Positions 25,233 to 28,421 of a stretch of DNA of 64,000 nucleotides are shown here, piece by piece. Source of the DNA: Eubacteriales bacterium. Lineage in GTDB: Bacteria > Bacillota > Clostridia > Oscillospirales > CAG-272. The position numbers and the translations under genes were made by a program. The stretch covers positions 885 through 64,884 of the forward strand of contig JAZUBZ010000095.1 in assembly GCA_045638805.1 (NCBI GenBank), read 5' to 3'. Every line of letters begins with the position of its first letter. Position 1 is the stretch's first letter. Below the pieces are notes generated by a model. That model saw nothing but the letters and a program-made list of their open reading frames with translations, had not been told where the DNA came from and ran no database searches.

Positions 25233-25262
25233 TTGACAGATACAGGTAAAAGGTAGTATAAT
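25233..25262 (+). promoter_or_regulatory. near-consensus sigma-A promoter reading into the RHS remnant/immunity array
   Basis: TTGACA (25233-25238), an 18-nt spacer, then TATAAT (25257-25262). Confidence 0.55.
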
Positions 25263-25508
25263 ATTTACAGATAGGGATTGGAACGATAATATACTTGTTC
25301 CTCTTTATGACACTGAAAACAATGTTTGTGGTATTATCTACAATAATGTACCGTAACTTCCCGGGGAACCTCCGGGGTGACGTAATCGCTATTGTTGCCA
25401 AGAATACTAATCCATTGCACCTACACCTACGACGCTTGGGGTGTACCTGCAGCTACTCAGGATATCTATGGAACAATACTGAGTATGTATTATGGGCATT
25501 GTCTCTAA
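25237..25508 (+). pseudogene. frameshifted remnant of the 3' end of an RHS/YD-repeat core
   Basis: Three consecutive frames read YDTENNVCGIIYNNVP* (to 25356), NFPGNLRGDVIAIVAKNTN (from 25355) and HCTYTYDAWGVPAATQDIYG (from 25413, stop at 25506-25508). Joined, this is the usual GxxYxxxxYYxxxNLQGDVxAIxD...YxYDAWG stretch of RHS cores. Confidence 0.75.
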
Positions 25509-25597
25509 CAAAATCAACTGGCTTTTGTAGTTAACCGATAAGCTCAAATGTAAACAGTACCATTTTAGAAATAATCAAAAAAGAGAGTGTGTACATA

Positions 25598-26017
25598 ATG
25601 AATGATGCGACTGTAATTTCGTATATCTTGACCAGATGGATGCTTTGGCTGATAATATTCTTTATTTTGAGTGCTTTGTTTGCTGTGTATTCTTTTATCA
25701 AACGCGTAAAAAAGTATAGATGGTTACTCGTTTTGCCTCTCTTACTGTATACGATCTATGCAGCAATTCCAACAATTAACGGGTTTATTGATATTTCACA
25801 GGACTCATACATCACCCAGTCTGTCAGCTACTATCGCCCAAGTGAAGCTAACACCAGGGGTTCTCTCCCTGCATCAGAAAGTATTCAAGTAACTCTATCC
25901 ACCGGTGAAACACTAACGCTTAAATGCGGTGATACAAGTTTCCCCTATGGCAGGTATACCGGTGTAATTGTCTACGCCCAAAGAAGTAAGATTGCTATCT
26001 CTTTCACTCCGGATTGA
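25598..26017 (+). CDS. small membrane protein, candidate orphan immunity protein
   Basis: Two N-terminal TM helices plus a soluble tail of about 75 aa. It lies 89 nt downstream of the RHS remnant. The RBS is weak. Confidence 0.6.
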   Translation: MNDATVISYILTRWMLWLIIFFILSALFAVYSFIKRVKKYRWLLVLPLLLYTIYAAIPTINGFIDISQDSYITQSVSYYRPSEANTRGSLPASESIQVTLSTGETLTLKCGDTSFPYGRYTGVIVYAQRSKIAISFTPD

Positions 26018-26242
26018 TGTGTTGTTTTAACCGGTGAGAATGAATACAGCATTTGATCAAAAATTGATTTTGATTCCAAAGAAATAATACTCGTTAATGA
26101 AAATAATACGTAAGTCTGTATTTATGTAACTTAGTAGCATTTTGTGTATAAGTACTTCAAATGAGAATCTCTGTTTTACAACAGATGAGGTAAGAAATTT
26201 ACTCCTATCAGCTGTCATCCGAGCATTGCTATAATCAATCAT

Positions 26243-26881
26243 TTCCGCTATAGATCGTACTATTACGATGAAGAAATCGCAATGTACTATCTCCAGAGTA
26301 GATATTATGATGCGGTTGTCGGTAGGTTTGTTAATGCGGATGATTGTAATATAGTTATTTCAACATTCAATTCATATAATCATTCTTTCATCTTTTGCAA
26401 TAATGATGCCATCAACAACTATGATTTCTATGGCTTCATATCAATTAAAGCAATGGCAATGGTAACATGCGCAATTGCTGGAGCTGTGTATGCTGTATCC
26501 AAAGCATCACAATTGATTAACAAAAATTATTTCAAGAAGAATGGTCTTGTAGTTGATGGACTGACAATATATTTAGCAGCTTTTATTGCTGGCGGTATAG
26601 CGGGATTATTCGCTGGATCTAAGATTACTGGATATTTCAATTTGATAATGGGAGCCATTGGTGCTATTATTTCTGTCATTGTTTATTTAAAACTACATAA
26701 AAAAATGTTACATTCCAAAATAAAATCGAGTGATGTATTGTGGGTAGCCATCAAAGGTTTTTATACTGCATCAATTGGAGTTAGTAGTAAATCATCAAAA
26801 AAATATGTAATACAGTGCGTCCTAAAAGCAGTGGGGTTGGGAGCATTGGTCGGTTTTTGTGATTTGTTTTTGTTTTTCTAA
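26243..26881 (+). CDS. orphan RHS C-terminal toxin tip with glycine-zipper membrane helices (no convincing own start)
   Basis: Frame open from 26189. It reads FRYRSYYYDEEIAMYYLQSRYYDAVVGRFVNAD (RHS core end), then FCNNDAINNYDFYG (pre-toxin linker), then hydrophobic helices containing AIAGAVYA, GGIAGLFAG and GAIGAI. The listed ATG at 26282 lacks an RBS. Confidence 0.75.
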   Translation, partial: FRYRSYYYDEEIAMYYLQSRYYDAVVGRFVNADDCNIVISTFNSYNHSFIFCNNDAINNYDFYGFISIKAMAMVTCAIAGAVYAVSKASQLINKNYFKKNGLVVDGLTIYLAAFIAGGIAGLFAGSKITGYFNLIMGAIGAIISVIVYLKLHKKMLHSKIKSSDVLWVAIKGFYTASIGVSSKSSKKYVIQCVLKAVGLGALVGFCDLFLFF

Positions 26882-26900
26882 TGTTAAATAAGAGGTCATT

Positions 26901-27155
26901 ATGAAATTAGCTTTTTTAATTGTAACGAGTATACTTCTATCTGTAACTGAGTTTATGATGCTTTGTATAGTTCCGAAAAAAACTGACAAAATTGTTTTTA
27001 GCATTATTGCACTCATAGTATTTTTTGTTGTTATTTATATACATCCTCAATTTATTCATAGTTTAGGTGTATTATGGGATTTACAAGTTCAATCAAAGGT
27101 TATTCTAGGAATTAGTTACGGATTAACTCTAATTGCTTCTGTTATATATAAATAA
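26901..27155 (+). CDS. 84-aa three-TM protein, candidate immunity protein for the preceding toxin tip
   Basis: Starts 19 nt after the toxin-tip stop. AAGAGG RBS 6 nt upstream. Three hydrophobic helices. Confidence 0.6.
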   Translation: MKLAFLIVTSILLSVTEFMMLCIVPKKTDKIVFSIIALIVFFVVIYIHPQFIHSLGVLWDLQVQSKVILGISYGLTLIASVIYK

Positions 27156-27175
27156 GTTCAAATCGCTCAGTACTT

Positions 27176-27823
27176 GTGTTCGTTTTCAATCATGTAATTT
27201 ATACATTTCGGCAGGGACATTACTTCTCTGCCGAAATGTACTATCTCCAAAGCAGATATTACGATGCCAAAGTTGGTAGGTTTGTGAATGCGGATCTAAT
27301 CGAAACCGCCGGACTATACATGAATATTCTTAAATGGAACATGTCTGCATATTGCGAAAACGATCCTATTCTAAGAATAGATTGTAATGGTTGTTACTGG
27401 TATCAAAATTATTATGGATTTAAAAAAACTTCCGTTGGATTCAACCTATATGCAAACATTGCGTTTTTGTCTAGAACATTCTGTCTAGCATATGCTTACG
27501 ATTTTTTAAGAGCAAACGGAACATGGCATTGGTATGGTCGTACATATTCTGGAATGGATCAACTTCGAATTGCACAAGAATTATGGTTCCATGCAATTGT
27601 GTATTATATAGGTATGCCAATTCAAAAAGTTCTTAAAGTAGTTGGTATTTCATGGGGATGGCTGAATAGAAAAGTGACTAGTGCAAATTACATGGAAATA
27701 AATAGCAACGACAGCCGAGCATGGATCTTCGCATTATTTTGGTGGGTAGGTTTTGAAATTAAAGCTGCAATATGTCAAAAACTGAGTATTCCTTATAGAA
27801 TCATTACTGCAATTGTGCTATAA
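27176..27823 (+). CDS. orphan RHS C-terminal toxin tip, unknown toxin domain (no convincing own start)
   Basis: Frame open from 27152. It reads TFRQGHYFSAEMYYLQSRYYDAKVGRFVNAD, then NMSAYCENDPILRIDCNG (AYCxNNPxxxxDxxG-type linker), then about 150 aa of unassigned sequence. Confidence 0.7.
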   Translation: MFVFNHVIYTFRQGHYFSAEMYYLQSRYYDAKVGRFVNADLIETAGLYMNILKWNMSAYCENDPILRIDCNGCYWYQNYYGFKKTSVGFNLYANIAFLSRTFCLAYAYDFLRANGTWHWYGRTYSGMDQLRIAQELWFHAIVYYIGMPIQKVLKVVGISWGWLNRKVTSANYMEINSNDSRAWIFALFWWVGFEIKAAICQKLSIPYRIITAIVL

Positions 27824-27878
27824 CCTTTATCCACCTTAATAATAGCCCAAAATTCAACTTTGATACAAGAGGTAAATC

Positions 27879-28421
27879 ATGAAAAAATGCGCTTTTATTA
27901 TTATATCTTTAATTTTAACCTTAAATATAGTTTCATGTAGTGGTGTTTATGAAGAAACCATTGTTTCGAACATTGAAGAATACAGTAGCATCTGGTCTTT
28001 ACCAGAACGCAGAGTGGGAGAGACTTCCTTGTTATTTCCGAGTAAAATTAATGAAGAATGTACCGAATTCAAATGTATACATACTACTTATAAATGGTTA
28101 GGAACAGGATGGCAAATTACATTAGCGCTTAAATATGACGATTCTTTGAGCTTTGGAAAGGAAATTGACCGTTTGAATACCCTCTCTGAAAATTCTCCAG
28201 TTCACGAAAATTCCGATTACTTTGATAAATCTGCCTATGCATCAGTTTGGAATTGGAACGGTTGCTTTGAATATGCTATTGTAGACGAATCAGAAAAAAC
28301 TGTAAACTACATATATTTGCAGCTAACTGACAAAGATGAACTCACAATAGATGCCAACTATATACCCAACGGCTATGAGATAGAATTGACAGACTGTGAG
28401 TCATACTCGGTATATGAGTAA
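27879..28421 (+). CDS. lipoprotein, candidate immunity protein for the preceding toxin tip
   Basis: MKKCAFIIISLILTLNIVSCSG lipobox. AAGAGGT RBS. 55 nt downstream of the toxin tip. Confidence 0.7.
   Translation: MKKCAFIIISLILTLNIVSCSGVYEETIVSNIEEYSSIWSLPERRVGETSLLFPSKINEECTEFKCIHTTYKWLGTGWQITLALKYDDSLSFGKEIDRLNTLSENSPVHENSDYFDKSAYASVWNWNGCFEYAIVDESEKTVNYIYLQLTDKDELTIDANYIPNGYEIELTDCESYSVYE

Follow-up and report, generated by a model that had tools for sequence, protein, structure and literature searches.

Start-less orphan toxin cassettes lying beside immunity genes that can be expressed have been described, and a role as an immunity repertoire was proposed for them (Poole et al., 2011, PMC3150448). 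Activation of orphans by tip-swap recombination is known from Salmonella (Koskiniemi et al., 2014, PMC3967940). An array of similar appearance is present in a 64,000-nucleotide (nt) stretch of DNA of an Eubacteriales bacterium (contig JAZUBZ010000095.1), which is referred to below as the window. The array comprises three successive units, each beginning with the end of an Rhs core; in units 2 and 3 this core end leads into a C-terminal region, or tip (tip2 and tip3), and every unit is followed by a small open reading frame (ORF), imm1, imm2 or imm3 (Table 1). The array consists of orphan rhs-CT/rhsI-type toxin-tip/immunity cassettes, located on an accessory island (3.7 kb) in the chromosome of a gut member of the Clostridia. 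With a probability of roughly 60%, it serves as an immunity island with a promoter of its own, in which the tips are silent cargo.

Rhs core ends and the missing shell

The original prediction, made from the sequence alone, was that of orphan Rhs C-terminal cassettes accompanied by immunity genes. It is supported by profile matches above the cutoff, by the linkage of the pairs in independent genomes and by the lack of any other Rhs shell in tblastn searches. The peptides quoted for the units were reproduced at their positions by three-frame translation of 25200–28430. The hidden Markov model TIGR03696 (Rhs_assc_core; curated cutoff 32.5 bits) matches unit 2 (26243–26881) with 35.5 bits and unit 3 (27176–27823) with 44.8 bits; unit 1 has no match to this or other family models. 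A profile of unit 3 and 25 relatives matches the C-terminal core ends of Rhs proteins with solved structures, e.g., 7q97 (E 8e-17) and 8h8a (E 3e-15). Core homology begins at 26195–26216 in unit 2 (tblastn) and is recognizable only from about 27232 in unit 3, where it amounts to a 64-nt repeat. No other direct repeat of appreciable size occurs in the region; the copies of this core end in units 2 and 3 are 84% identical.

The search space for rhs and secretion genes was the 64-kb window, which covers all but ~5.9 kb of the 69.9-kb contig. Tblastn with four Rhs proteins matches only 25279–25472, 26195–26536 and 27164–27391, and the longest ORF of the window encodes 816 aa, short of the more than 1,000 aa expected of a YD-repeat shell. 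The predicted absence of a full-length Rhs shell was thus confirmed for the whole 64 kb. Homologue searches for the tips (three runs) gave only proteins of 376 aa or less; the profile search returned nothing longer than 250 aa and missed sequences of 263–373 aa whose domains were present in the query alignment. Since only short proteins were returned, the fact that full-length Rhs proteins with tip2 or tip3 did not turn up is no evidence on their occurrence.

Significant family matches on the tip domains or immunity proteins are absent from Pfam/NCBIfam and PADLOC, in agreement with the prediction that the two tips and three immunity candidates belong to no recognized family. The sole PHROGs match, to phrog_10385 (unknown function), falls on core-end residues in units 2 and 3 (E 1.5e-05 and 8.6e-04, respectively), and PADLOC gave a single weak match, NsnC on imm3 (E 0.0039, 14.6 bits). 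No Rfam match was obtained at E ≤ 1, and scans of viral contigs confirmed no relatives.

Toxin tips and their putative immunity partners

The tip2/imm2 pair recurs in contig L005, where tip2 is 67% identical to protein P0114 and imm2 is 34% identical (E 6e-13) to the 88-aa ORF behind this tip2 homologue. The tip3/imm3 pair recurs in contigs L001, L088 and L089. Here, the imm3 homologues directly follow the tip3 homologues and all carry lipoboxes; the identity of the two partners falls together (tip 85/68/50%, imm3 57/51/35%). In contig L002 the tip3 homologue is followed by a different lipoprotein. Because their linkage to the tips is conserved, the small downstream ORFs are likely to be immunity genes. 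The dN/dS ratio (nonsynonymous to synonymous substitution rates) is 0.35 for imm2 and 0.17 for imm3.

Hydropathy analysis of tip2 reveals hydrophobic segments at residues 64–86, 101–126, 128–152 and 188–212, i.e., about four helices. The glycines of its GxxxGxxxG motif (G117/G121/G125) are invariant in three homologues. By its predicted features, tip2 probably damages the membrane via glycine-zipper helices.

Tip3 is 79% identical to protein P0001, and its AlphaFold2 (AF2) model has a predicted local distance difference test score (pLDDT) above 90 for residues 75–200. A search with this fold found no match in PDB or BFVD (best E 2 and 0.3, respectively). Certain Cys, Glu, His, Asn and Arg residues are invariant in the family, some of them within the motif RIAQELWFHA, and all are kept in the window copy; C103, E135 and H139 (numbering of the 215-aa ORF) are among them. 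The dN/dS ratio of tip3 is about 0.07 relative to L001, and its divergence from outgroups almost equals that of the L001 copy. Owing to these properties tip3 cannot be regarded as a decayed gene. The lipoprotein nature of imm3 makes a target outside the cytoplasm probable for tip3, either at the wall or at the outer face of the membrane. Another member of the tip3 family, P0023 (373 aa), has a signal-peptide-like start and a YHYHCGG motif, behind which come a brief stretch of YD-shell end and the tip3 domain. Being short and possibly secreted, this chimera may bypass the Rhs shell.

Unit 1 and immunity genes without a toxin

Unit 1 DNA shares 72% identity with the core region of an Rhs fragment of 747 aa in L001 and 78% with a core end that is intact in contig L087. 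Relative to L001, its frame is broken by three indels (−2, −1, −1) in a stretch of ~170 bp. Because homology stops after 'MYY', unit 1 is regarded as a pseudogene stub. The possibility that units 1 and 2 are a single core end split by an insertion was rejected: each has its own WG...MYY segment, and they are separate units in L087.

The start of imm1 is placed at ATG 25598, since homologues align from residue 4. The imm1 family has 35 representatives. One of them, P0213, begins 4 nt after an ORF, and ahead of this ORF, in frame with it, stands the Rhs pre-toxin linker 'YTFCNNDPVNETDIDG'. As P0213 directly follows an ORF with this linker, imm1 would be the antidote to a tip not contained in the window. 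The module composed of the stub tail and imm1 is 95–96% identical in L087 and contig L095, whose neighboring sequences differ, which indicates that the loss of the toxin in unit 1 is old and that imm1 was kept.

The C-terminal ~50 aa of imm1 (residues ~92–140, 25868–26017) match 7–17 repeated stretches in proteins of 1,400–5,700 aa (P0214, P0217, P0219 and P0226). In view of these matches, this part appears to be a domain that large proteins employ as a repeat.

A relic of another immunity-like gene lies in the 200-nt stretch that separates imm1 from unit 2. It is 91% identical to the 3′ end of a 152-aa ORF of L095 together with the core end that follows; the parent protein is intact in L095.

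Table 1. Position and basis of the elements of the array and of the island, numbered from the first letter of the window
Element	Position	Strand	Basis and remarks
Strain-variable island	25137..28846	.	L093 homology ends at 25136 and restarts at 28847; low GC
Sigma-70 consensus promoter, TTGACA-18-TATAAT	25233..25262	+	12/12 match; directed into the array
Unit 1, decayed Rhs core-end stub, toxin tip deleted	25265..25511	+	Three frames; ends after 'MYY'
imm1, 139 aa, two transmembrane helices and C-terminal beta-rich domain	25598..26017	+	Hydropathy, homologues
Relic, last ~17 codons of another immunity-like membrane protein	26063..26113	+	Homology to L095
Unit 2, orphan rhs-CT: ~145 nt core end, FCNNDAINNYDFYG linker, ~150-aa C-terminal region	26195..26881	+	TIGR03696, tblastn
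imm2, 84-aa multi-pass membrane protein	26901..27155	+	Hydropathy; good ribosome-binding site AAGAGG
Hairpin with 16-bp stem at 5′ junction of unit 3	27202..27240	+	Inverted repeat; −24.5 kcal/mol, z −8.6
Unit 3, orphan rhs-CT: ~64 nt core end, YCENDPILRIDCNG linker, 143-aa predicted toxin domain of an uncharacterized family	27232..27823	+	
imm3, 180-aa lipoprotein, lipobox IVSC	27879..28421	+	Good ribosome-binding site; homologues
GC-rich 17-bp hairpin, CTCCGCAC...GTGCGGAG type	28720..28756	.	Inverted repeat; −27.7 kcal/mol; near right end of island

Expression signals of the array

The consensus promoter reported to point into the array is present with all 12 positions matched. Four perfect TTGACA-18-TATAAT sites occur in the 64 kb, compared to 0.06 expected by chance, and two of the others, at 20736 and 32621, lie ~50 nt or less upstream of the ORF starts 20779 and 32576. 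The site at 25233–25262 would function as a promoter for the array.

The gaps between the units and the following ORFs (19, 55 and ~77–89 nt) and the pattern of ribosome-binding sites agree with their earlier description. AAGAGGT is found five nt ahead of the ATG of imm2 and imm3, and a weaker site precedes imm1. Inspection of the sequence, by which the start signals of the tips and immunity ORFs were assigned, revealed no comparable Shine-Dalgarno sequence ahead of the tip2 or tip3 ORFs.

The 5′ junction of unit 3 (27202–27240) is a near-perfect 39-nt palindrome, which base-pairs the in-frame ATG 27236 and includes the upstream peptide of this unit, 'TFRQGHYFSAE'. Fold-back repair could have left it as a scar, or it could serve to block translation. 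The tip3 homologue of L001 should be without the palindrome, since a longer core is kept there.

Both tips possess an in-frame ATG at the same position of the core ('MYYLQ', 26282 and 27236). Low-level translation from these codons, with neutralization in the producer itself, would make the cassettes internal toxin-antitoxin-like modules; the strong consensus promoter lies directly upstream, and internal promoters and starts were reported in rhs of Salmonella (PMC7043789). However, neither ATG has a Shine-Dalgarno sequence upstream, and that at 27236 is sequestered by a hairpin of very high stability. With imm3 a lipoprotein and the other two immunity proteins located in the membrane, neutralization would, at least for tip3, take place outside the cytoplasm, at odds with a cytosolic toxin-antitoxin pair. 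The tips themselves carry no signal peptide and can have none, because their ORFs start within the core end. Given the missing ribosome-binding sites, the hairpin and the extracytoplasmic immunity proteins, internal toxin-antitoxin expression is highly improbable.

Accessory island and its empty site

The cross-strain comparison proposed earlier was carried out with two relatives, L093 (GCA_054284985.1) and L094, reached via members of 90% identity clusters of the flanking proteins. The array is present in the window, the site is empty in L093, and L094 has no array. The flanks of L093 are 91–93% identical to the window, and 115 unrelated nt replace 3,710 nt of it. L094 is more distant (80–84% identical) and syntenic; no array follows its ATP-binding cassette (ABC) pair.

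The GC content of the island is 30–38% vs 42–49% in the flanks. The island contains the consensus promoter, all units and the GC-rich hairpin at 28720–28756, and it occupies the intergenic region that separates an ABC-exporter operon from a lipoprotein gene. Both its junctions fall in unique sequence. Beyond the listed parts it contains no convincing ORF, and no recombinase, transposase or other mobile-element genes were found in it. Target-site duplications and integron-like repeats are absent from the borders of the cassettes and the island, except for a weak 30-nt partial duplicate (28778–28807). This sequence, just within the right island edge, is 73% identical to the left arm of the ABC-operon terminator (28836–28865) and may be a trace of the island insertion.

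The window probably belongs to a metagenome-assembled genome (MAG), and rhs repeats often break assemblies; L005, for instance, begins inside an array. The array could therefore be suspected of being a misassembled complete rhs locus or a set of chance ORFs. But contigs from other samples (L087 and L095) independently carry modules that are 91–96% identical, and the flanks run unbroken into housekeeping genes, collinear with L093 and L094. Junctions in unique sequence and profile and homologue evidence far above chance speak in the same direction. Owing to the independent contigs and the collinear flanks, such an artefact can be given hardly any credence.

The CTCCGCAC...GTGCGGAG hairpin recurs at the edges of or inside Rhs arrays on three contigs, i.e., in the window, in L001 (4733–4758 and 10044–10069) and in L087 (1578–1614, after imm1). 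The L001 copies are followed by a T-run, as in terminators; the window copy has the opposite orientation.

Genes around the island encode FtsH, TilS, HPRT, a class-3 FBPase, the ABC-exporter pair and BspA-type leucine-rich repeat (LRR) lipoproteins. For the ABC exporter, the species-representative collection yielded only proteins of 62–73% identity without Rhs synteny, the nearest of them in Acutalibacteraceae/Oscillospiraceae MAGs, which points to Oscillospirales-type Clostridia. The exact core-end pattern had no match in this collection. Divergent from the island, the minus strand at 24315–24917 encodes a 200-aa lipoprotein without a family match; it has an extended −10 promoter (11/12) at 25065–25037. 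Being conserved in L093, this gene lies outside the island. Farther along the minus strand (21498–24252), two BspA-type LRR_5 lipoprotein paralogues are arranged in tandem, their first ~80 aa being nearly identical. In L093, one 342-aa gene (12978–14006) is seemingly a recombinant of the two. The paralogue pair would be a second strain-variable spot beside the island.

Export route and arrays of related contigs

In L002, L003 and L089, the tip3 homologues are orphans downstream of Rhs proteins of 2,018–2,100 aa, which possess Sec-type signal peptides and end in the same core-end motif. Gene calls in the retrieved DNA flanking these three loci included no T6SS or T7SS (type VI and type VII secretion system) genes. 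The original prediction listed the lack of export genes among the unusual traits of the locus. No secretion genes are indeed present in the window; this is not odd, since the full-length Rhs proteins near the tip3 relatives carry Sec-type signal peptides.

The arrays of L001 and L088 also have no full-length rhs gene in the retrieved flanking DNA, which suggests that the lone-array arrangement recurs in the lineage. In L088, a ten-gene Rhs orphan/immunity array (4525–14216) includes the tip3/imm3 pair. It lies ~1.6 kb after genes for a phage-type amidase and a holin, with a DUF3800 gene between them, and no full-length rhs is present within 10 kb upstream.

L002 and L003 are related metagenome contigs that differ in the tip of the main gene. 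In L002 (1–8544), the main Rhs has an AHH tip followed by a 247-aa immunity gene and then by a 490-aa orphan. In L003 (2463–8544), the main Rhs is fused to the tip of this 490-aa orphan and the AHH module is gone. The L003 main gene is joined to the tip of the first orphan across ~900 nt of shared core. The two contigs are a textbook natural case of a clean tip swap.

Immunity or storage of tips

The original prediction left the choice between an immunity-retaining toxin graveyard and a recombination reservoir. Both can be accommodated, and the evidence leans to immunity-retaining relics; the term graveyard suits unit 1 only, as the invariants of tip3 are kept at a dN/dS of ~0.07.

In the second function, the island would store tips and immunity genes for swapping into a full-length rhs gene elsewhere in the genome via the conserved core end. 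The uninterrupted tips 2 and 3 would be expected of such a store, as would the intact tip3 invariants. The same toxin family provides an example in L003, which equals L002 minus the AHH tip and its immunity gene after recombination in the core, and activation of orphans by recombination was shown experimentally in Salmonella (PMC3967940). Against this, the core that is left measures no more than 64 nt in unit 3 and ~145 nt in unit 2, with just 84% identity between the two units over 64 nt, whereas the canonical orphans of L002, L005 and L088 retain 150–340 codons. With no rhs gene in the window, recombination with a distant one would rearrange the chromosome unless it proceeded as gene conversion, and one unit is already without its toxin but with its immunity gene. 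A reservoir is therefore possible but doubtful. An immunity function is favored over an active store of tips because the island is a lone, gained one with its own promoter, because one toxin was lost, and because the homology arms are short compared to the 150–340 codons of canonical orphans.

Under the favored immunity function, the promoter at 25233 would transcribe the array as one unit, and only the three immunity proteins would be made, namely two membrane proteins and one lipoprotein. They would protect the cell from the Rhs toxins of its neighbors, which in this lineage would be Sec-exported, WapA-like Rhs proteins. The tips would be silent cargo, active only after recombining into a full-length rhs gene.

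Some observations do not fit this interpretation well. The conservation of tip3, with all invariants kept, strong purifying selection (low dN/dS) and almost no extra divergence from outgroups, is more easily explained if the tips are occasionally used. The AF2 model of tip2 is poor (pLDDT 45) and unusable for fold search. In addition, a parent rhs gene may be located on another contig.

A more far-reaching interpretation can be put forward tentatively, with somewhat more support than a reservoir. The island could be a Gram-positive counterpart of the acquired interbacterial defense (AID) clusters of Bacteroidales: horizontally gained, provided with its own promoter and selected for conferring on gut Clostridia immunity to the Sec-exported Rhs toxins of competitors, independently of an own rhs gene. 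Tip3/imm3 would then be an envelope-targeting toxin of a new fold with its lipoprotein antidote.

Toxin warfare, both contact-dependent and secreted, is well studied in Proteobacteria and Bacteroidales and hardly in Clostridia, the strict anaerobes dominating the gut. The locus is a clean natural filled/empty-site example of immunity genes moving without a delivery system. It adds two candidate toxin/immunity pairs outside the described families; one of them includes tip3, with a confidently predicted fold, no solved relative and an extracellular lipoprotein antidote. The accepted model of polymorphic-toxin loci is unchanged by these data and is extended to a new lineage, with candidates for experiments.

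Comparison with known systems

Orphan rhs-CT/rhsI and cdiA-CT/cdiI modules (PMC3150448, PMC3967940) are the closest described counterparts. In both cases, 5′-truncated fragments keep the junction to a variable tip, the tips have no start signals, and the small immunity gene that comes next possesses a Shine-Dalgarno sequence itself. The modules are arranged in tandem, with strain-variable content, and a tip and the ORF behind it are inherited as a pair (here in L005 for tip2, and in L001, L088 and L089 for tip3). The described arrays directly follow the full-length gene, whereas the window has a lone island and no rhs in 64 kb. The island further differs in having a consensus promoter of its own and core arms that are very short (64–145 nt). 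The described hosts are proteobacteria, in contrast to a Gram-positive gut anaerobe here, and the toxin and immunity families of the window are uncharacterized.

WapA-type Sec-exported Rhs/YD toxins of Bacillota are represented by the full-length relatives in L002, L003 and L089 (~2,000–2,100 aa), with a signal peptide and the shared core-end motif. Unlike these, the window has only the last 20–80 codons, and the signal peptide, the wall-binding region and the YD shell are missing.

The AID and recombinase-associated AID (rAID-1) clusters of Bacteroidales (Ross et al., bioRxiv 10.1101/471110) are likewise horizontally variable, low-GC clusters of orphan immunity genes with some pseudogenized remnants, and they presumably protect against the toxins of other strains. 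However, AID clusters counter T6SS effectors and are carried on mobile elements or associated with a XerD-like recombinase and integron-like repeats. The island described here is without a recombinase, a repeated intergenic motif or mobile-element genes, and it retains two complete tips.

Tip2 resembles the membrane-depolarizing glycine-zipper toxins (the Rhs effector Tse5-CT, PMC9637101; the LXG toxin EsxX, PMC12744356; ionophoric CdiA-CTs, PMC11630599): its C-terminal domain is small and hydrophobic, about four helices are predicted in it, and its GxxxGxxxG motif is invariant. The pairing with a small multi-pass membrane immunity protein is also common to them. In contrast, the tip2 region has no sequence match in PDB, and Tse5 matches the shared Rhs core only (E 1.5).

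Immunity arrays that arise by effector displacement are known for the T6SS of Vibrio cholerae (PMC5361080) and the T7SS of firmicutes (PMC9484751). As in these arrays, imm1 was kept after the loss of its toxin, a relic of a further immunity-like gene is present, and strains differ by reshuffling of the modules. However, the known arrays remain joined to the locus of the secretion system or effector, whereas this island is detached from any such locus. Taken together, the locus fits the already described orphan rhs-CT/rhsI modules, to which the empty-site comparison and the two uncharacterized pairs are useful additions.

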